DNA from: Orbicella franksi
Taxonomy: Eukaryota
Assembly: GCA_964199315.1 (NCBI GenBank)
Contig: OZ116708.1
Location: 28,458,001 to 28,522,000, forward strand
DNA length: 64,000 nucleotides
Reading direction: 5' to 3'
In this document: one piece after another, positions 51,284 to 64,000 of the stretch
How the letters are laid out: the number at the start of each line of letters is the position of its first letter
How positions within the stretch are numbered: the first letter of the stretch is position 1
Notes under the pieces: model-generated
Seen by the model: the letters and a program-made list of their open reading frames with translations, nothing else
What the model was told of the DNA's origin: nothing
The model's database searches: none
Program-made: the position numbers and the translations under genes

Positions 51284-51560
51284 CTAAGGTAAAGGTTAAA
51301 TCTGTATAGAAGCCAGATGGCCCACGAGGCCTGAGCTTATCCTGGTTTCTGTTGCCTGAAGCGACTAGGAGTATTTCTATTGCCCCCAGGGTTGCTCCCA
51401 GCATTACGTTAGCTGGTTCTCATTTATACACCTGGGTGGAGAGAGGCACTGCAAGAGTTAAGTGACTTGCCCATGAACACAATGCAATATCCCCTGCTAG
51501 GGCTCAAGCCCAGACCACTTGATCCAGAGACGAGCGCACTAACCATGAGGCCACTGCGCC
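51284..51560 (-). mobile_element. tRNA-derived SINE
   Basis: The minus strand starts AGGCGCAGTGGCCTCATGGTTAGTGCGCTCG (A-box-like) and ends in a (TTTACC)-like tail. Confidence 0.75.
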
Positions 51561-51969
51561 TTCCACACAAACCACCCATAGTTGACCAATATTTACTAAC
51601 AGGTTGGGGAGATACCAGCTACAGTTGACCAATATACCAAAGATAGTTCACTAATACACCACAGACAGATGACCAATATATTACTCACAGTTAACACATA
51701 TATTACATACAGTTGGCCAATATACCATTGGCAGTTGATTTATACAGCAGCAGCTGTCAATTGATAGTTAACTAGCAGCTGACCTATGTACCATCAATAT
51801 ATCAGAGACACTTGCTGATATTTAAATGACCCTTATTTACCAGAGACAATTGACCAGTGTTCAGCTTACTATTTATTTTAAGCTTCGTTTCGTATACAAA
51901 TATCTCAAATTTGAATTAAAACAGCCCTTGTAGGTTTTAATTGAAAATGTTATTCCATTTTTCAGGTAG

Positions 51970-52062
51970 AAGAGATGGATATTCAGCTGCAACAGCCATA
52001 TTTTCGCAAGGCTCAGCAACATGAATGAGGAAAAGATGGACTGGATTTTTAATGAGACAAAG
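51970..52062 (+). CDS. Isolated candidate coding exon (KRWIFSCNSHIFARLSNMNEEKMDWIFNETK)
   Basis: Polypyrimidine tract plus CAGGTAG tandem acceptor, 93-nt open frame and AAG/GTGAGC donor. May belong to the unknown gene starting at 32898. Confidence 0.4.
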
Positions 52063-52404
52063 GTGAGCAGTAGTTGCAGCTTTTGGACCGTGACAATGTC
52101 TTAATCAACTTAACTAATATGGATAGTGTTATGTAATGTGTTAAAAGTTGACTTTAAGTATAGAATTATTTTATCTCTGATACATATGTATTGGTGGATA
52201 TGTACTTGGACCGATATATTTACATGTAGTAGTTCACCAATATTGTTCACAGACACATTACCTCTAATTTTCCAATACTTTGATCACCGATACATAGCCG
52301 ATTTACTACCATCAGCTGGGTTAGGTACATGTATGACAGATACTGCTATTCAACTGATGCCTAACTGATGTATGTACCAAACGCACTTAACAAATATGCA
52401 TGGA

Positions 52405-52690
52405 CACACTTTATTTAGACACGGTCGAAACATCAGTTACAAGATCGAGATTTTAAAAAAAGCCGATTTACATGTTTGCCGTGTGGGAGTACAAGGAGGA
52501 CAGTTGGTGATTTATCTCATTTCTAAAGTTAATAAAAGATCTAATGGCTCTGACGTTGGATGGAAGGCTATTCCACAAATATGCCCCACTGTAGCAGCAA
52601 CTACGTTTCAATAAATTGGGGTTGGCAGAGCCAATTTGTTTTCAATATTTCTGAGTCCATGGTCCGTGCTGAAGGGCTTAAATAGGCCTA
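52405..52690 (-). mobile_element. L2/CR1 LINE 3' fragment
   Basis: Minus-strand translation HGLRNIENKLALP...YSGAYLWNSLPSNVRAIRS, ending with AATAAAG near 52410. Confidence 0.7.
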
Positions 52691-53750
52691 GAGTCCAGGG
52701 CTCGAAAAAAACTTGAATTCCAGCTGCCCTTGGGACAAGTATGTCTCAAATATTTCTTGCCGTGGGCAAGCCTTAGTTTGCTCTTTTTATGATTTAGTTG
52801 CATTGGCAGACAACTTGCCTGATGCCTTGCCCATCAGGCAAGTCAGAATGAAAAGGTACTTCCTCAGAAGGAGAATCTACTTGTTCTGGACAACTGGACG
52901 GCACTATTTTTGGCACTTGACTGATAAACCACCAACTAATATAGCCCGTGTTTTCAAGAAAGATGTTTACCTTGGTTTTGTTTTAACTTTCCTGAAGTGA
53001 AATTTTTAAATGTGTAAACACCGTAGTAAACCCCCTTAAATGGCAGCAAAATCAAAAGTAAGTCAACCCAGGTTTGTCGATAGTTGAACGCCTCATCAGG
53101 CATGGTTTAGCTTAGTAACAGACGGTAACTGAGGAAAAGCAGACATTGTCGCTACATCTTGGCAGCAAGTGTTCACGAGTTCAGTGCGTAAAGAAGAGAA
53201 AAAAAGACAAAGATTCCCCCTAATAAAAGTAGGTTTCAAGTCAATGGGCAAGAAAAGCTAAATTAACTCTTACGAGTTTAGGCAAAGAAAGTCCAGACAA
53301 TTGTTTCCCTTTCACTCTCGAGTGTCATAAGCATTTCCTTTCTGTTAGAGGCTCAGTTGCTCAACAGCAGGGTACATGCAGGCACAAGAAGAAGACCTGT
53401 TGGTCACAAAGAGAAAGAGAGAGAGAGAGAGAAAAACATCACCGATTCCCCTGAAACATGGCAAACGTGCACAACATCACTATTATGTTAACTAAGTGCA
53501 GCAGTTTGATTAAACTGTCTATTGTTTACGAGATATGTCAATCAAACTGTCAAATTTGTGGTAAGAATATACATCAAGTTTGATCACTTGTTGCAAGCTA
53601 GAAACAACTTGAAATGACATTATATTTCTGCATAGAGTAGTTCAAACCCTTAGAAATAAAACGTTGAGTAAACTTCCGTGGCTTATTTTTTTGGCCAGGA
53701 GCTAAATTTCAACTCACCCTAGTCAAGTCATATCTAAACAGTAGGGTCTT

Positions 53751-54550
53751 TTAAGGGCCCATTAACCGATTTATGTGCGCCCTTGCGTGCGTTGCTAAGG
53801 AGGTGAAATTTCACTTCCGGTTACTTAAGTCAGCCCGAGGCAGAAAATAAAAATAATTCAATAACTTCCAAATTCGCACACATTTTAGTTGTTTTTCTTC
53901 GTGTTTCACAAAATGCAAAGTAAAAAAAGTACAAGCAAAGACAAAATAAGAGAAAGACAGAAAAACAAGAGCAATAGAAAGAGAAAAACTAACTCCGTGT
54001 GGCTTTGTTTGATCTTACCAAAATGTGCTGGTGGTGTAAAGTGTGCACACGCTGATAGGGTAACTTCCAATATATATCAGGCGCACTTCCAGTTTCTTTA
54101 AATGCTAAAGGAAACCCGGTTTTTCCTTAAATCCAGCCTTTTTTGACGGACTTAAATTAAAGGCAACGTTGGAAACATAGCTATGCATTCTTTTTTCAAA
54201 ATCATGCTGTTTTCAAAAAATTGCGAACTTTTTAATATTTTGAAATTCTCTCAAAATTTGACCTTTTAGAAATGAAACAAAATCTATGCATAGTGCAATG
54301 AGGATTTAAATTAAAATATTAAATCAATGAAAAAAATTCCGATAAAGTAATTTGCCTGGGAGCCTTTGCATTTTTTCAGTATTGGTCACATGACTATGGG
54401 CGTGGACTGATGAGGTCATCACTAGTGTTGCTGATCATGAAAAAGTTAAAACACATGAAAAAAACTCTGAAGTAGCTCAAAATGACGAGGTTATATGAGA
54501 ATAAATTTTCCCTAGCAACGGCTTGAAAAGATTGGTTAATGGGCCCTTAA
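53751..54550. mobile_element. Non-autonomous Kolobok-like DNA transposon, 800 bp
   Basis: TTAA-GGGCCCATTAACC...GGTTAATGGGCCC-TTAA termini. Confidence 0.8.
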
Positions 54551-55155
54551 GTTGGTGTTTGAAGTGATGCGGCCTGTTTTTCCAATCAAATTTGGAGCTA
54601 TCTAAAGCTTGCCAAAGAAATGATCTTTCAGTTTGAAAAGCAAAAACTCTGTGAAGGACGCTGTTGGAAAACCTCTCTTTGCATCATTTACTAATGTTTG
54701 TTTGTGACAATATGCAAATTAGCTCGACATGGAATTACTGTCAGAATGTTCATTGTTTGTTAGTCTATACTTTAAAAAACTGTATCCATCAACACCGTGA
54801 TTGATTGTGACTTTTTAATTGTGGATTTTGTAGATGTACACTACTGATTTCTTTCACTCGTCCATTGTTTTTTCTTTTCACTATACTTTTTATAGCGGAG
54901 CTCGGGCGGCCCAAAGGGCCGCTAAGCGGAGGCCCATACTCATATAGGAAAGAAAAGAAAACCCACGAGTTGATTTTTTTGGGGGACTGGGGCTGACCAT
55001 CATGGTGTCGAGCTCACTGCTTCTATAGCTCCACAAACTATGGCGATTTAATGATTTGTAAGCTGAAGTTTTGGTTATGCATGGTGAACAAAAAGGTTAG
55101 ATGGACTATTTCTACACAAATATTTGGCTGATGTAGCTGGACCTGGATTTTAAAG

Positions 55156-58100
55156 ATGCCACCGAAGGAAAAAAAAGTGGCCACGAGGTTCAAGTTCATC
55201 GACCGGGGAGGCTGACGAAATTCTTGAGAGGCTGTTAAGCATCCAAAATCGCATTGAAAATGGATTTACAAAGATTTACGATGAAATAGAAACTTTGAAG
55301 ACTGAACTAAACCACAATATCAAGTCTGTTAAAGAAGAACTGGGTGAGACAACAAAATCTCTAAATGCCGTATGGGAAGAAGTTCGATTGCTCAAAGAAG
55401 AGAACAAAGAGCTAAAAAAGCAACTTGACAGCACCACTAAAAAGAGTGATACTTTAGAGAAGAAGGTCGAAACCCTAAGGAGCGACTGGTAAAACAGGAG
55501 GATTACTCAAGAAGGGAAAATTTACGTTTTTATAATATCCCAGAAGAACCAAATGAGATGAACAAAGAATGTTTTCAGAAGCTGAGGCAAGTTTTGACCG
55601 AGCTCGGAGCGCCTTCAGATGTCAAATTTCATGGGGTTCATCGTACAGGAAAGCCAAATGTGGGCACACGAACACCTTCAACATCGAATGAAGAAGAGAT
55701 ACAGGGACCACCTCGCCCGCGACCAATATTAGCCCGTTTTCTATCGCGTATGGACTGCGATTTGGTGTGGTTTAAGAGAAAGGAATTGCTGAAGAGCGCC
55801 CGTTTCCCGACTGTATTTATCGACAAGGATCTCTCTCCAGAATCTGCTAAAGACCGAGCTAAATTATGTGCTGCCTTTAGGAAAGCTAAACAACTGAACA
55901 TTGCTAAGGTACTACTCAGAGGTAAAAGTCTAATTATAAATAGTAGTAAATATTCTGTAGACACATTACCAGAGTACTCGCTGCCAAGCGAGCAATCAAC
56001 TACTCCTGAGTAAAAACCTTTGATTGACTTTATTTCCATTTTATTTTGTAAAGCCGATGATCGGCTTTTATCGTTTAAGGCGCCACCAAACCTCTCAACT
56101 GATAGGCAATTTATAAGTCTTAACTTTGCTTTGGTGTCGCTAAAATTGCGATGTAAATGGTAATTAGAATTGCGATAAAATTCTTGCATACCAAAATTTA
56201 ACGGAATGAAACACCAAAACATTTAATTCGCCAAAGTTTTTTCATTAGCACCTAACATTTTTGTTTTGTTTTTATAACAATAGCTGAATAAGTCCAAAGT
56301 CCCAAGGGTCCAAACCAAGGTTCAAATCTTGAGACCCTTTTACCATCTAATCAGTTTAGTTTTTTGTTTTAATATGTGTTTAAAATGTCTATTTAGTGAG
56401 TGTACGTGTTATTGCTTCTATGTATACTGCATAGACTTTTCTTTTGGAGCTGCCAGTTAGGAAACAGCTCTTTTGAGTCAAATAATGATTATACAATGGC
56501 AAGCAAAAAGGAGAATGTGAATTTTAAACTTCTTTCGCTTAACGTACGTGGAATCCGTTCGCTCGAAAAAACGGAAAGCTTTGTTTATCTGGTTGAATAA
56601 GCAAAAAGCAGACATTATTTTCCTCCAAGAAATGTACAGTTCAGTAGAAATCGAGAATATATGGAGAACCCAATGGAATGGGAAAATGTTTTTCGCGCAT
56701 GGATCAAATCACAGTTGTGGCGTTATAACACTCGTTAGAAATGATTTAGATTTTGAAGAAGAATCCTGCAAGTGTTACCAAAATGGTAGATTTATAATTT
56801 TGAATGCGTCTGTGCAAGGAGTTAAATATGTCTTTGCCAACATCTATGCACCAAATAAGGTACGTCATCAATGTACTTACTTTAAAGATTTATATGAAAA
56901 ATTGGACGACATCATAACAAGCGCTGAACAAAACGTTATCATTGGAGGTGACTTCAATGTCACTTTTGATTCAAGTCTGGACTGTTTGGGTGGTTCACCA
57001 GCAAAAACAGAATTGGTTAAGATTCTTGAAGAAATCTGTTTGGATCTGGATTTGATCGATATCTGGAGAGTAAGAAATCCGAAAGAGAGGCTGTTTACTC
57101 TGAAGCAAACCAAACCTTTGATCCAAAGAAGACTAGATTTTTGGCTGATTAGTGACACCTGCCAAGATGAAGTCGAAGAAGTTAAAATTATACCTTCTAT
57201 AAAGTCAGATCATTTAGCATTTACATTAATTTTTAATGGCATAGAAGAACAAAAGCATGGTCCATCTCATTGGAAATTCAACTCTACTTTGACTAAGGAT
57301 GACGAACATGTAAAACTTATTAGTGAAAGTGTACCCGTTTGGATTGAGGAATTTAAAGAGGTCAATGACAAAAGAGTGCTCTGGGATCTTATAAATATGG
57401 AATCCGACAAGTTTCTATAAAATATAGTAAAGGGAAAGCATGGCTAAGAAAAGACAAATTGCTAGAAATAGAAACACTTCTTAAAGTGTACCAGGAAAAA
57501 TGCCCTACTGATCCATCAGCAGAAAATATTGAGCAGCTTGAAATTCTTCAAAGTAAGTACGATGCACATTTTGATTACCTTTCGAAAGGAGCTATTATTC
57601 ATTCGAGAGCGTCCTGGTACGAGAAGGGTGAAAAAAATAATAAGTACTTTCTAAGCTTAGAATCTCATAAAAAGGCCAAAAGTTGTGTCCATAAAGTTTT
57701 TACTAAAAAAGGAACTTTAAGCTCAGACCCAAAGAAAATTATGAATGAGATTGAAGATTTTTACACAGATTTATACGGTCTCGAGAGTAACCTACCAGAA
57801 TTTGCAGATTCCTTTTTTCAACATTCTGCAATTTCTAAACTCTCACCAGATAGAGCAGCAACTTGTGAAGGAAAGCTAATGGTGGAAGAATGTTTTAAAA
57901 GCCTACAATCCTTTAAAGAAAACAAATCACCAGGAAATGATGGACTTACTGTAGAATTTTATAAAACATTCTGGGGTGTTCTGGGTAATCTTCTAGTAGA
58001 AAGTCTAAATTGTGCTTTTGGCTACAGTGAGTTATCAAATTCACAAAAGCAAGCGATTATAACTTTGATAGAAAAGAAAGGAAAAGACAGAAGACATATT

Positions 58101-59595
58101 TCCAATTGGAGACCAATCTCGTTAATAAATGCGGATGCAAAGATTGGATCAAAAGCAATTGCAAGAAGACTTCAGGGGGTTTTACCTGATATAATACATC
58201 ATGATCAAAATGCTTATGTTAAAGGAAAGTCTATCTTTGACGCAGTTAGAAGTATTGACGATATTTTATAATTTACTGAACAGAAAAAGATCAAAGGTTT
58301 TATGCTAGCAATTGATTTTAAAAAAGCGTTTGATTCGCTTAACAGAAGTTTTATGTTTGAAACGCTGTTAACTTTTAACTTTGGCCCTTCCTTCGTGCGT
58401 TGGATTAGGACTTTTTATCAAAATATAACAAGTTCAGTTATGAATAATGGTTTTTGGACTGGCCCATTCAACGTACGGAGAGATGTTAGACAAGGTGACC
58501 CCCTATCAGCGTATTTGTTTATTATCTGTCTTGAAATTCTTACTATCTCTGTGCGTGAAAATAACAATATCCAGGGGATTCAAGTCGATAAGGAAGAAAT
58601 TAAACTTGAAATGTTTGCCGACGATGTTACAGCCTTTGTAAGAAACAGGAGATCTCTTGAAGCCCTTCTCTGCACTACTGACTTGTTTAGTAAGTGCTCT
58701 GGACTTGAAATCAACTCCGAAAAAACTGAATGTATGCTTTTGGGTAATCGAGTCTCCTTGGCAGCAATGGATGTCATTCCTCCAAAAACATCCGAATTAA
58801 AGACACGGTTAAAATTTTAGGTGTTTACTTTACTTACAATGAAAGTCAAAGAAAAAAGTTAAATTTTGATGAAATTCTTAAATCCATTAAAGAAAAGTTG
58901 CAAAGGTGGAAGTGGAGGGACCTTACCATTCTAGGAAGAATTCAGATTGTAAAGACGTTTGTGACACCATTGTTCATGTACCGAGCCAGTTTAATTTGTG
59001 TGCAAAAAGATACCGTAATGGAAGTCAACAGATTACTCTTCCAGTTCATCTGGAAAGGAAACGATAAAGTCAAACGTTTATCACTTGTAAGTGATATCGA
59101 TAAAGGTGGACTAAAAGCGCCTCACGTAGAATCGATTATTAAAAGCCAAAGGATCATGTGTTGCAAGAAATTTGCCGATGATCAACAAAGTAATTGGAAG
59201 ATTATTCTTTCCCATTACCTAAAAATGTGGGGTCGAAACTACTTCTGCGCTGTACTTTTGACTTAAAGAAATTGCCTATTAATTTACCCATTTATTTTGA
59301 AGAATGTCTGCGATGTTTTGCAGTAGAATGTAGAATAACTGAGTAGAATAACTGAACAAGCACTTTGTCAAGAAATACACAACAAGTTTATTTGTATACA
59401 AGTTAGGTCCATTTTCTACGAAGAGTTATTTAGAAAAGGAATTATTACACTTGGGGATCTTACGACTAAAGAAAATGCAGTATTCACAGGGTTTCAAATT
59501 ATTACAAGCTCTTCGCTTACATCCAAAGAAAAGTTTCAGCTAATGGCGATAATAGACGCATTACCTGCACAGTGGCGACAACATTTAAAAAACAC
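55156..59595 (+). mobile_element. Decayed L1/Tx1-clade LINE (ORF1 and ORF2), 3' end cut off
   Basis: ORF1 (about 55156-56013): coiled coil then RRENLRFYNIPE, VHRTG and PRPILARF. ORF2 from ATG 56496: LSLNVRG, FLQE, NIYAPN, GGDFN, SDH endonuclease; KSPGNDGLTVEFYK, IDFKKAFDS, RQGDPLS, FADD RT. Several frameshifts and stops. Confidence 0.92.
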
Positions 59596-59738: not shown

Positions 59739-59991
59739 GTGTACAAAGAACATCAGTTGTTGAAAGCAAAGCTCGACAAGGATACAGCGTGTTGCGTGAG
59801 CACTGCGCCAGAACGGTGAGTGTATGTACGCACCAGTGCACCAGTAAAATTTGGCGAAAAAGCGGGTCCAGCAAAGCTGCAACGTCCGTAATCAATATGC
59901 GCGGACGTGCCTTTCACTGGTATATATAGAAAACCGCACCAGAAAAATTTTCCCATTGGAGAAGTGCACGCTCAGTGTATACTGTGCCGAC

Positions 59992-60345
59992 ATGGCTGCC
60001 TGTGGACTTTCCGAGGCCATCCAAAATCTCCCTCCAGAGCTCCGTGAGATGATTTTCAAGGAGTACATTGCGAAAAAAATCAAGGAAAAAAAAGAAATGG
60101 GGTGGGGGAAAGTACACGAAAATCTTAAAAAACTACCGTTTTGCGAACTGAAGCAGCAAATAGCCCGCATGATAATATGTTTCGATGATCCAGACTGTCC
60201 TTTCGAAGGGAAATGTTCTCGCTGTTTTGATGAGGGAAATGTTCATGAAATGCGGAGGTCCGAGTTCAGTGGGTTTATAATTCCATGTTCTTTGGGTGCT
60301 TATGATTATCACGAATTATTTCTTACCGACTACATAATGTTTTAG
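59992..60345 (+). CDS. Virus-like F-box-like / Cys-rich protein A, copy 1 (117 aa)
   Basis: Intronless ORF with IQNLPPELREMIFKEY (F-box-like LPxEL..MIF) and a C-terminal Cys cluster with CxxC. Confidence 0.65.
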   Translation: MAACGLSEAIQNLPPELREMIFKEYIAKKIKEKKEMGWGKVHENLKKLPFCELKQQIARMIICFDDPDCPFEGKCSRCFDEGNVHEMRRSEFSGFIIPCSLGAYDYHELFLTDYIMF

Positions 60346-60422
60346 CGAAAAGCATCATCCGCCAAAGCCATTGCGGCGACGGCGCTGCGCCGGGGGTACA
60401 ACTCACAACAAAGGAGTGTGAC

Positions 60423-60830
60423 ATGTTAGAAACAAGCGAGCACGTTGTTATACCACCAGAGCCAGGGATGGCACGAGCCCCAAACAAGTGTGGGTGGCTG
60501 ATGCGGGGCCGGAAAGAAAGCTGCAGGCTTTCAGAGGCCATTCAAAACCTCTCTCCAGAGCTTCGTGAGATGATACTCAAGGAGTATCTCGCGATAAAAA
60601 AGAGGCAAAAAAAGGAAATGGGCTGGGATGAGGTACATGACGAGATTGAAGAGGCACCGATCTGCGAAAAACGATCAAGAATTGTAAAGGTCATGTTTTG
60701 CCGTAAATGCAACTCTTGTGGCATAAACGGGCTCTGTTACGAGTGTTATAAAAATGCAGAAAAACATTATCTTGCCTACCCCATGTATGATGAGAACGAC
60801 CACGCCGAAATCTTTCAGAAATTTTACTAA
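60423..60830 (+). CDS. Virus-like F-box-like / Cys-rich protein B, copy 1 (up to 135 aa)
   Basis: Paralogue of A: IQNLSPELREMILKEY...KKEMGW, then CRKCNSCGINGLCYEC. Confidence 0.65.
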   Translation: MLETSEHVVIPPEPGMARAPNKCGWLMRGRKESCRLSEAIQNLSPELREMILKEYLAIKKRQKKEMGWDEVHDEIEEAPICEKRSRIVKVMFCRKCNSCGINGLCYECYKNAEKHYLAYPMYDENDHAEIFQKFY

Positions 60831-60972
60831 CTGACAAAGCTTTATCTTTGTTTTTATCTCCCAAGGAGGCCGAACCTTCTATTTTCAAAGTGTCCCAACG
60901 CACTTTCGGAATCGGGTCTTCGAAATAGATAGTCTGCCCGTTCTGTTGCGTGGCAATAGTGAGAACAACCAT
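60820..60972 (-). pseudogene. 5' fragment of a Polinton/adintovirus-type minor capsid (penton) gene
   Basis: MVVLTIATQQNGQTIYFEDPIPKV..WDTLKIEGSASLG resembles the N-terminus of the protein whose C-terminus is at 63758-64000 (recalled family pattern). Truncated at a junction. Confidence 0.55.
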
Positions 60973-61007
60973 TTTATATTCAACAAATAAAATTGTGTTC
61001 AAATAAT

Positions 61008-61577
61008 ATGGCAAATGTGTGGAAAGATCCAAACATTGTGATAAAAGACGCAATAGCCAAGACAAACGCATTGATAGAATTTGCAGCACATTTCCCCAAG
61101 GCCGATAGATCCCGTTTCATCGCTCAGGGGAATACAGACGGAAAAAACGTTACAGAAGAAATCTTTTTCAAAGAGGGCCCAGGCTCCCTTCAAAGCGTCT
61201 TCGGCTCAGACAAAAAATGTTGGAGCGAGGAAATGAAAAAGGCGTTGGGTTTGGAAGACAAGCGCTCGGGGGAAATTGGAAGGTTTCCTTACCAGCTGGC
61301 GCCGCTTGGTTCAAAAGTTTCCTTGCCCATCCCTGCCGTACCTTTCGACGGCAAAGCACAAAGTTTGAAAAAAATATTCGATACCCCCATCCAAATATAT
61401 GTCACGCCTGAACAATATTTTACGACAAAATTCCGAGAAATATTTGAAAAAACCAAACTCAGGCACATGTCGGCAGTCGAATCAAAACGCTGGCTGGGAG
61501 GGCCTGACATGAAATATTGGCCACAGCAGCTCAACTTCGCGGTTTTCTGCTTGACACAGGGGTGCGGAGTTTCTCGC
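61008..61577 (+). pseudogene. Truncated conserved Polinton/adintovirus-type protein (WPQQLNFAVFC family)
   Basis: Intronless 190-codon frame ending KRWLGGPDMKYWPQQLNFAVFCLTQGCGVSR at the duplication breakpoint. The motif is recalled from invertebrate Polinton-like elements. Confidence 0.6.
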
Positions 61578-61627
61578 GAAAAATTTTCCCATTGGAGAAG
61601 TGCACGCTCAGTGTATACTGTGCCGAC

Positions 61628-61981
61628 ATGGCTGCCTGTGGACTTTCCGAGGCCATCCAAAATCTCCCTCCAGAGCTCCGTGAGATGATTTTCAAGGAGT
61701 ACATTGCGAAAAAAATCAAGGAAAAAAAAGAAATGGGGTGGGGGAAAGTACACGAAAATCTTAAAAAACTACCGTTTTGCGAACTGAAGCAGCAAATAGC
61801 CCGCATGATAATATGTTTCGATGATCCAGACTGTCCTTTCGAAGGGAAATGTTCTCGCTGTTTTGATGAGGGAAATGTTCATGAAATGCGGAGGTCCGAG
61901 TTCAGTGGGTTTATAATTCCATGTTCTTTGGGTGCTTATGATTATCACGAATTATTTCTTACCGACTACATAATGTTTTAG
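61628..61981 (+). CDS. F-box-like protein A, copy 2
   Basis: Identical translation to 59992-60345, offset 1636 bp. Confidence 0.65.
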   Translation: MAACGLSEAIQNLPPELREMIFKEYIAKKIKEKKEMGWGKVHENLKKLPFCELKQQIARMIICFDDPDCPFEGKCSRCFDEGNVHEMRRSEFSGFIIPCSLGAYDYHELFLTDYIMF

Positions 61982-62058
61982 CGAAAAGCATCATCCGCCA
62001 AAGCCATTGCGGCGACGGCGCTGCACCGGGGGTACAACTCACAACAAAGGAGTGTGAC

Positions 62059-62466
62059 ATGTTAGAAACAAGCGAGCACGTTGTTATACCACCAGAGCCA
62101 GGGATGGCACGAGCCCCAAACAAGTGTGGGTGGCTGATGCGGGGCCGGAAAGAAAGCTGCAGGCTTTCAGAGGCCATTCAAAACCTCTCTCCAGAGCTTC
62201 GTGAGATGATACTCAAGGAGTATCTCGCGATAAAAAAGAGGCAAAAAAAGGAAATGGGCTGGGATGAGGTACATGACGAGATTGAAGAGGCACCGATCTG
62301 CGAAAAACGATCAAGAATTGTAAAGGTCATGTTTTGCCGTAAATGCAACTCTTGTGGCATAAACGGGCTCTGTTACGAGTGTTATAAAAATGCAGAAAAA
62401 CATTATCTTGACTACCCCATGTATGATGAGAACGACCACGCCGAAATCTTTCAGAAATTTTACTGA
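62059..62466 (+). CDS. F-box-like protein B, copy 2
   Basis: One amino-acid difference from copy 1 (HYLAYP versus HYLDYP), and a TGA rather than TAA stop. Confidence 0.65.
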   Translation: MLETSEHVVIPPEPGMARAPNKCGWLMRGRKESCRLSEAIQNLSPELREMILKEYLAIKKRQKKEMGWDEVHDEIEEAPICEKRSRIVKVMFCRKCNSCGINGLCYECYKNAEKHYLDYPMYDENDHAEIFQKFY

Positions 62467-63113: not shown

Positions 63114-63740
63114 TTACTCTGCATTTTTTTTTCTATATTCCTGAACCTGGTCCCGAACCTGGTTTCTTATTTTTTTGATATCTGGCTGGATTGGACTTGT
63201 CTGTATTTGAGCAAAGTTCGAGCGTAAAGTATCTTTAAGCTGGCTATATTTCTGCATTTCACGTGTGATCAGTTGAAACTCCGTGTCAGAAACCTGATTA
63301 TCATTAAGAGCCTGTGAGACGGCGAGGTTAATCGAGTCATGTTTCGCAATAGCCAGAGAATGGATTCTGGAGTGCTTATTGACTTTGCGTTCAAGCTTCT
63401 TGTTGACAACGGACAGGCCAGTGAAAACTGCACCAGATAAAGCGGCAATCCCGGCAACAGGCGCGCCGACAACAATTCCAACACCAGTGAGTGATGTTGC
63501 GACAGCCCCAGAAGACAGAACTGCTGTGAAGGCGGTAAGGCCAACCACGGAATAGTGAAGCGCTTTCTGGGCTTTTTTGTATTTTTTCAACACAAGCCTG
63601 TAATGCTCGACCTCAGCAGAAATTTCTTTTTCAATTCTGCTGATCTCGGTTAGCCGGAAATTCTCGGCATTCATCGTTTCGGGAAGGCTTGGATAGATGT
63701 CAGGCGGTGCACTTGGTGGCAACAGATTTGCCGAAGACAT
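63114..63740 (-). CDS. Polinton/adintovirus-type protein with Gly/Ala-rich hydrophobic hairpin and N-terminal PSAP/YPxL motifs (208 aa)
   Basis: PPSAPPDIYPSLP, FRLTEISRIEKE, an approximately 50-aa hydrophobic stretch, KH..I..LA and SQALNDNQVSDTEF. Lies directly downstream of the penton gene. Confidence 0.75.
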   Translation of the reverse strand: MSSANLLPPSAPPDIYPSLPETMNAENFRLTEISRIEKEISAEVEHYRLVLKKYKKAQKALHYSVVGLTAFTAVLSSGAVATSLTGVGIVVGAPVAGIAALSGAVFTGLSVVNKKLERKVNKHSRIHSLAIAKHDSINLAVSQALNDNQVSDTEFQLITREMQKYSQLKDTLRSNFAQIQTSPIQPDIKKIRNQVRDQVQEYRKKNAE

Positions 63741-63757
63741 CGCGTATATATAGAAAT

Positions 63758-64000
63758 TTAATTTAACTCTAATTCAAAAAGAAGAGGAAAGCCCTTGAAA
63801 TCAAAGAGTTCGCCATTTTCATCTTTCACGCTAATGGTGATGCTATTTATGGACTGGTCTGTAGAGCAGTCTCGCAAAACCTGTTGCGGAGAACCCTGGT
63901 AGCTCACCTTTTCATAAGGATTCCCTTTCACATCAAAGAAGGCTAATACATCTGACCTTTTGCCATTGAACAGATTCCGTTTTGTGTCGATCAAATCACA
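63758..64000 (-). CDS. 3' part of a Polinton/adintovirus-type minor capsid (penton) gene, running off the window
   Basis: C-terminus INSITISVKDENGELFDFKGFPLLFELELN has the I.I.I.(V/L).D..G..(I/F)DF.G pattern typical of Polinton single-jelly-roll pentons (recalled). No stop upstream within the window. Confidence 0.7.
   Translation of the reverse strand, partial: CDLIDTKRNLFNGKRSDVLAFFDVKGNPYEKVSYQGSPQQVLRDCSTDQSINSITISVKDENGELFDFKGFPLLFELELN

Follow-up and report, generated by a model that had tools for sequence, protein, structure and literature searches.

Conserved late-domain-type motifs on a predicted membrane-hairpin protein of animal Polinton-type viruses

The analysed window is a stretch of 64,000 nucleotides from the Orbicella franksi genome (contig OZ116708.1, positions 28,458,001 to 28,522,000), and its end falls within a Polinton-type element. 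The 30 kb that follow contain genes for an A32 packaging ATPase (E 1.2e-5, with bits barely above the Pfam cut-off), an rve integrase (E 2.6e-4, below the Pfam cut-off) and a partial PolB, which shares 42% identity with the PolB of the viral contig L074. The element thus holds the combination of PolB, rve integrase and A32 ATPase by which Polintons/Mavericks (Polintoviricetes) are recognised. A comparison of the window with the 30 kb beyond it revealed no terminal inverted repeats for this rearranged copy. The gene near the window that we take, mainly from its position, to encode the major capsid protein is fragmented; it gave zero matches in Pfam and PHROGs and zero BLAST match to the capsid of L074. 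The gene located at the very end of the window probably encodes the penton and stops 17 nt ahead of the ATG of the gene studied here (Table 1). It yielded a structural model of low confidence (pLDDT 48), for which minor capsid proteins stand among the top Foldseek rows, at E 0.008-0.05. Compared with its nearest relatives, this penton (L021:1761-2393) lacks about 12 residues near the N-terminus. Given the shortened penton and the fragmented putative major capsid gene, the window copy of the element is probably defective.

Table 1. Features of the hairpin-protein gene and its upstream neighbour in the window
Feature	Positions	Strand	Basis or remark
Probable minor capsid (penton) gene, upstream, 3′ end	63758..64000	(-)	Weak fold matches; homologue upstream in distant clade
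SLATT/2TM-like hairpin protein gene of the Polinton-type element	63114..63740	(-)	208 aa; at least 150 genome matches
PSAP, TSG101-UEV-type late-domain motif, residues 9-12	63705..63716	(-)	Sequence
IYPSL, ALIX-V-type motif (hydrophobic-Y-P-x-L), residues 15-19	63684..63698	(-)	Sequence
Met23, candidate alternative start omitting both motifs; not conserved	63672..63674	(-)	
Long-helix first arm, residues 25-62, basic KKYKK at its end	63555..63668	(-)	AlphaFold
Uncharged Gly/Ala/Val-rich hairpin of 50 residues (63-112), turn 84-87, predicted membrane-inserted	63405..63554	(-)	
C-terminal helical region, residues 113-208, predicted cytosolic like the motifs	63117..63404	(-)	Model; topology from basic flanks

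The product of the minus-strand ORF 63740-63114 begins with MSSANLLPPSAPPDIYPSLP. The original prediction had recognised PSAP and YPSL at this N-terminus, and both are present. The AlphaFold model, calculated from an alignment of 80 sequences, has a mean pLDDT of 89.7; residues 1-24 are unstructured and helices span residues 25-83, 88-146, 152-181 and 188-207. The segment 63-112 contains zero charged residues and 17 Gly/Ala among its 50 positions, and Lys/Arg residues flank it on either side. These features suggest a membrane hairpin with both the N- and the C-terminus in the cytosol. PSAP, conserved as P-[ST]-A-P in a disordered segment that is probably exposed to the cytosol, has the form expected of a P(T/S)AP late domain. 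The flexible leader and the hairpin of about 50 residues in the original prediction agree with the model, and the penton identity of the neighbouring gene is supported weakly.

The predicted fold has the architecture of SLATT/2TM proteins, that is, two hydrophobic helices forming a hairpin and followed by a helical C-terminal region. The Pfam SLATT_1 hit is weak and below the cut-off (E 0.051; 14.1 bits against 26.3), and 1 of 80 family members matches this model at E<=0.01. The PADLOC 2TM effector model matches residues 24-167 at E 2.2e-6 and is matched by four of the 80 members; the RTX N-terminal domain of Pfam is matched by eight of the 80. In viruses, the strongest fold matches are to uncharacterised invertebrate iridescent virus proteins (E 1.5e-7 to 7e-6), with S6DF61 (E 1.5e-7), A0A5B8RH66 and A0A068QKD3 at the top. 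SLATT-labelled models from giant viruses appear among the weaker matches at E>=0.1. The Foldseek search of the PDB returned nothing at E<=0.001. VIA-align scores peaked at Z 11, against BAR domains and other helical bundles, which lies in the range of common arrangements and does not argue for kinship with BAR domains or ESCRT-III.

Proteins of this type have been noticed before. The label "SLATT" stands on published adintovirus maps, that of a coral element included, whose labelled protein may be of this family (PMC8502044). The SLATT genes of adintoviruses and Polinton-like viruses have been interpreted as pores (PMC12220804, 10.1101/2025.10.09.676808, 10.64898/2026.10.13.758929), with a hypothesised role in endosomal escape or lysis in the case of Polinton-like viruses (PMC12220804, 10.64898/2026.10.13.758929). 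The available portions of these reports do not mention late domains for the viral SLATT proteins (PMC12220804, 10.1101/2025.10.09.676808, 10.64898/2026.10.13.758929). A search of the open-access literature yielded no description of ESCRT late domains in Polintons or on SLATT proteins. The original remark that no description was known holds for the motif pair on a Polinton protein, which is apparently new, but not for the type of protein, which is already known as SLATT/2TM.

At least 150 matches to the protein were listed in the genome from 307 candidates. They form two families, with identities of about 75-95% and 35-46%. Sixty of the 150 listed copies were fetched and 58 were examined; L013 and L033 were excluded, their start being parsed differently. 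PSAP is present in 46 of the 58 copies, YPxL in 36 and YPx[VI] in 19. The 12 copies lacking PSAP carry scattered base changes, six of them at CpG, which matches the decay expected after insertion. The PSAP codons vary between copies, CCA AGC GCG CCG standing against CCT TCC GCT CCT, and a TCN serine is used in 6 of the 46. In the second family (B), 18 of the 33 copies with YP read YPVV instead of YPxL. When ten family-B copies were compared with the window copy, six agreed with it at 84-95% over the 150 nt upstream and at 82-90% over the first 13 codons, the cores agreeing at about 54%. Because recombination shares the penton end and the first 13 codons between the families, their agreement in the motifs was not counted as independent evidence. 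Across the genomic loci (L001-L063 of G000), two types of penton and two of hairpin protein are variously combined. They are joined at the end of the penton gene and the start region, which are nearly identical between types and form a recombination hot spot in these elements. The close relatives that bear names come from stony corals, and RNA matches come from coral samples. Raw reads numbered two in one RNA run and zero in another. Contigs from two RNA runs cover 30 of 30 bins, a result that carry-over of multi-copy DNA would also give.

To assess conservation apart from the leader itself, a core-only profile was built from 14 genome copies with the leaders removed and used to search 1.84 billion representatives, of which 1604 matched at E<=0.001. 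The best 150 of these were examined and 57 full-length relatives were kept. The 93 dropped sequences comprised 53 without the core start, 33 without the core end, five with leaders shorter than 10 aa and two with leaders longer than 60 aa. The median pairwise core identity among the 57 is 34%. P[ST]AP occurs in the leaders of 27 relatives and YPxL in those of 39, against means of 0.30 (maximum 4) and 0.81 (maximum 5), respectively, in 2000 composition-preserving shuffles. This corresponds to an enrichment of about 50-90-fold, and conservation above the background of the variable leader, which the original prediction had left to be checked, is thus established. In 38 relatives a hydrophobic residue precedes the tyrosine, giving the hydrophobic-Y-P-x-L form of ALIX-binding YPXnL motifs with x free. 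Either motif is found in 46 relatives and both in 20. The cores and tails of the same 57 proteins contain zero occurrences of P[ST]AP or YPxL, and the first 45 aa of other ORFs in the window and the adjacent 30 kb contain them in 0 of 68 cases. For PPxY there is no clear enrichment, as four of the 57 relatives have it against a shuffle maximum of 6.

The 57 relatives share ancestry, since single linkage at 40% leaves four clusters. When each 50% cluster (28 in all) contributes one member, P[ST]AP averages 13.1 and YPxL 17.5; at 45% (19 clusters) the averages are 9.9 and 12.7. When all short leader patterns are ranked without bias, YPxL leads, with 17.6 of the 28 weighted clusters, and PxAP follows at 14.0, level with PxLP. 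The spacer between the two motifs varies from 0 to 13 aa, and the residue ahead of Ala-Pro is Ser in 22 cases and Thr in 7. YPxL precedes P[ST]AP in 7 of the 20 relatives with both. On the core tree, the reversed order (eight rows when YPx[LIV] is allowed) takes five changes, at least three of which are forced by well-supported branches; the bootstrap was nearly settled. Free spacing, Ser/Thr exchange and order reversal together are the behaviour of selected short linear motifs. The leaders contain 63 tyrosines; Pro stands at +1 of 49 of them, Leu, Ile or Val at -1 of 47 and Leu at +3 of 42, the +2 position being free. This tyrosine context fits the ALIX motif (LYPxL) better than the general YxxPhi signal. 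Judged by the leader sequences, the motif pair is real and strongly selected on a SLATT-like, predicted membrane protein of animal Polinton-type viruses.

The motifs are not universal. Seven of the 57 relatives have neither, even with YPx[LIV] included, one clade retains YPxL alone, and in a later, leader-inclusive search 5 of 26 relatives have short leaders free of motifs. It had also been recognised that translation starting downstream, at MNAENF, would remove both motifs from the protein. Such a start is unlikely as a family trait: a Met within the leader occurs in 6 of the 58 genome copies, and 7 of 50 distant relatives have a Met after the last motif.

In a distant clade, a penton-like gene lies upstream of the hairpin gene in three of four metagenome loci, and the single such gene that was compared matches the local penton family with a probability of 97%. 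A core-only DNA pattern led to L074, a 17.6-kb adintovirus-like viral contig which encodes a double-jelly-roll capsid, A32 ATPase, PLA2 and PolB. Its hairpin-protein homologue (E 2e-37) is encoded among the capsid genes and carries IYPDL followed by PTAP; the gene does not stand immediately behind the penton-like gene. As the capsid of L074 has no BLAST match to the putative local one, the hairpin gene appears to travel with different capsid modules. L074 also encodes a DUF2738 protein and, by eye, a short dUTPase-like ORF, and no integrase was seen in the part examined. It is the one contig among the pattern matches that is homologous; L077-L079 were rejected as chance matches. Protein-based scans of viral contigs and scans of prokaryote genomes found no relatives, and the Atlas clusters matching the hairpin protein include viral ones. 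Cluster look-ups of 30 distant relatives named a host in one case, Hydractinia. "Bartonella" labels on two short contigs probably reflect contamination. Behind a homologue with YPxL only, an overlapping frame (L070:2488-2724) ends in PSAPPMYSL, that is, PSAP and PPxY in tandem. This frame could represent a tail shifted out of frame, a minor gene of its own or a coincidence.

The host possesses candidate partners for both motifs. Exons of the ALIX V domain are present in the genome and match the FYN segment of human ALIX. Two UEV loci (G000:C2:27307351-27307518 and G000:C4:20219253-20219420) have TSG101-like exons matching residues 67-118 of human TSG101, with Tyr68, Asn69, Thr92 and Met95 retained. 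We take these residues and the FYN segment to line the motif pockets. The two UEV exons possibly represent a duplicated TSG101 or a UEVLD-type paralogue.

Several known systems resemble this arrangement. NS3 of bluetongue virus has two membrane helices and carries PSAP and PPRY, through which it links non-enveloped particles to ESCRT for non-lytic release (PMC7409164). The likeness extends to a similar size, N-terminal late domains including PSAP, a predicted coiled region, a basic stretch ahead of the two membrane helices, and a virus that is non-enveloped (PMC7409164). The proteins differ in that NS3 pairs PSAP with PPRY, a Nedd4 motif, whereas the hairpin protein pairs it with the ALIX-type YPxL, and in that the lumenal loop of NS3 is 21 aa long and glycosylated, whereas the turn of the hairpin protein has four residues. 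Foldseek lists NS3 at E 0.19 and TM 0.18, and Pfam lists no NS3 match; by this comparison NS3 would be an analogue of the hairpin protein and not a relative. The same motif pair within a disordered, Pro-rich segment is found in retroviral Gag: HIV-1 p6 contains PTAP and YPXnL, and EIAV YPxL (PMC4880917, PMC5217368); LYPSL is given for Rous sarcoma virus in the title of a reference cited there (PMC5217368). Gag, however, is a capsid/matrix polyprotein of enveloped RNA viruses, whereas here the motif carrier is a distinct membrane protein, encoded by a jelly-roll-lineage DNA virus that is known from its genes. Iridoviruses belong to the same virus kingdom as Polintons and bud by means of ESCRT (PMC4880917); in tiger frog virus, VP031L, VP065L and VP093L are described as acting in budding through ALIX, TSG101 and Nedd4 (PMC4880917). 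They differ in being large and in that their budding is already established. The pair of ESCRT-type motifs is a variant of a known strategy, apparently undescribed in this virus group. The original prediction also regarded Polinton-type viruses as usually assumed to be non-enveloped. This needs qualification, as enveloped particles have already been hypothesised for nematode Mavericks with the MFUS-1 fusogen (10.1101/2022.07.12.499685). That idea rests on the captured fusogen, and the words "ESCRT" and "budding" do not occur in the paper (10.1101/2022.07.12.499685). The ORFs of the window element and of L074 include no recognisable fusogen, which points to a quasi-envelope.

From the pattern of conservation we consider it likely that the N-terminal motifs bind ESCRT at all. 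ESCRT recruitment by itself does not single out egress; nevertheless, we infer that egress is the likeliest purpose of the motifs. We propose, by analogy with bluetongue NS3 and giving the idea an even chance of being correct, that the hairpin protein is an adaptor which recruits ESCRT for non-lytic exit in host membrane. The hairpin would insert into the plasma or an endosomal membrane, and the leader would bind the TSG101 UEV domain via P[ST]AP and the ALIX V domain via hydrophobic-YPxL. ESCRT-III and VPS4 would then pinch the membrane off, away from the cytosol. The C-terminal helices may hold the capsid, giving quasi-enveloped particles; the capsid is suggested as cargo because the gene stands among capsid genes. 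YPxL would act as the steadier signal and P[ST]AP as a second, partly redundant one.

It is also conceivable, though unlikely, that the protein forms pores or lyses membranes during entry or lysis, and that the motifs steer it or the incoming particle through endosomes. The 2TM effector and RTX N-terminal matches and the published pore hypothesis for Polinton-like virus SLATT proteins agree with such a role, as does adenovirus protein VI, whose PPxY is required at entry (PMC5217368). On the other hand, that viral SLATT proteins act as pores is so far hypothetical, the PLA2 of L074 is of an enzyme kind thought to serve entry (PMC8502044), and combined TSG101 and ALIX signals typify outward budding (PMC4880917). 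Somewhat less probable is a decoy or disposal tag, by which the protein would sequester ALIX and TSG101 from membrane repair before lysis or sort itself into intraluminal vesicles or exosomes. This would require only the binding implied by conservation, and the relatives without motifs show that the core can occur without it; but the position next to capsid genes in distant elements suits particle biology, and two parallel routes kept over deep time are excessive for a disposal tag.

The motifs could also serve the nuclear exit of capsids by recruiting ALIX and ESCRT-III to the inner nuclear membrane, in the manner of the nuclear egress proteins of herpesviruses. Nuclear assembly is plausible because no RNA polymerase was seen among the ORFs of the element, YPxL is the steadier motif, and the basic stretches could direct the protein to the nucleus. 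We nonetheless hold this to be improbable, since about half of the relatives retain P[ST]AP, and this ESCRT-I motif suits budding at plasma or endosomal membranes better than nuclear exit. No more probable than nuclear exit is that the motifs are selected for other partners, YPxL as a YxxPhi sorting signal for adaptor proteins and PSAP as an SH3-type proline motif. YPSL satisfies YxxPhi formally, YPxV and YPxI variants exist and the leaders contain 15% Pro; YxxPhi, however, requires neither the proline at +1 nor the hydrophobic residue at -1, and exchange restricted to Ser and Thr ahead of an invariant Ala-Pro is the pattern of the TSG101 motif. Chance, or hitch-hiking of a proline-rich leader with the penton gene end, is hardly credible even though recombination puts the same 5′ DNA on two different cores in the genome, being largely refuted by the enrichment over shuffles, the free spacing, the order reversal, the codon switches and the presence of both motifs in L074, where the gene does not directly follow the penton-like gene.

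Returning to ESCRT-mediated exit, a conserved ESCRT-recruiting membrane protein would give animal Polintons a concrete exit route, and it would offer an alternative function for the widespread viral SLATT-like proteins that have so far been taken as pores. More broadly, and with somewhat less than even confidence, in animal Polintons and adintoviruses alike the SLATT-like protein may be a dedicated ESCRT adaptor for non-lytic exit in a membrane cloak, a DNA-virus counterpart of NS3 that invertebrate iridoviruses would share. If so, elements present in hundreds of integrated copies could spread between cells or hosts without killing them, and the difficulty of finding naked Polinton virions would be accounted for. 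Capsid genes of coral Polintons are reported to be expressed (PMC11131425), and particles of vertebrate Mavericks are reported not to have been observed (PMC8097293).

Some further features of the element and its surroundings were recorded. The capsid module encodes a 521-aa coiled-coil protein (L021:4015-5577), which has a hydrophobic hairpin at its C-terminus and matches tape-measure proteins weakly; it is a second membrane-active candidate, and its N-terminus is without late-domain motifs. Within the window, an 887-nt block is duplicated at 99.8% in the region 59942-62464 (59942-60828 = 61578-62464), each block holding two related small Cys-rich ORFs, and the blocks are separated by 761 nt copied from the element DNA immediately past the window end. 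Several decayed retroelements flank the Polinton end at 42788-59266 and include, by eye, LINE-type ORFs for reverse transcriptase and endonuclease and BEL/Pao-like gag pieces.
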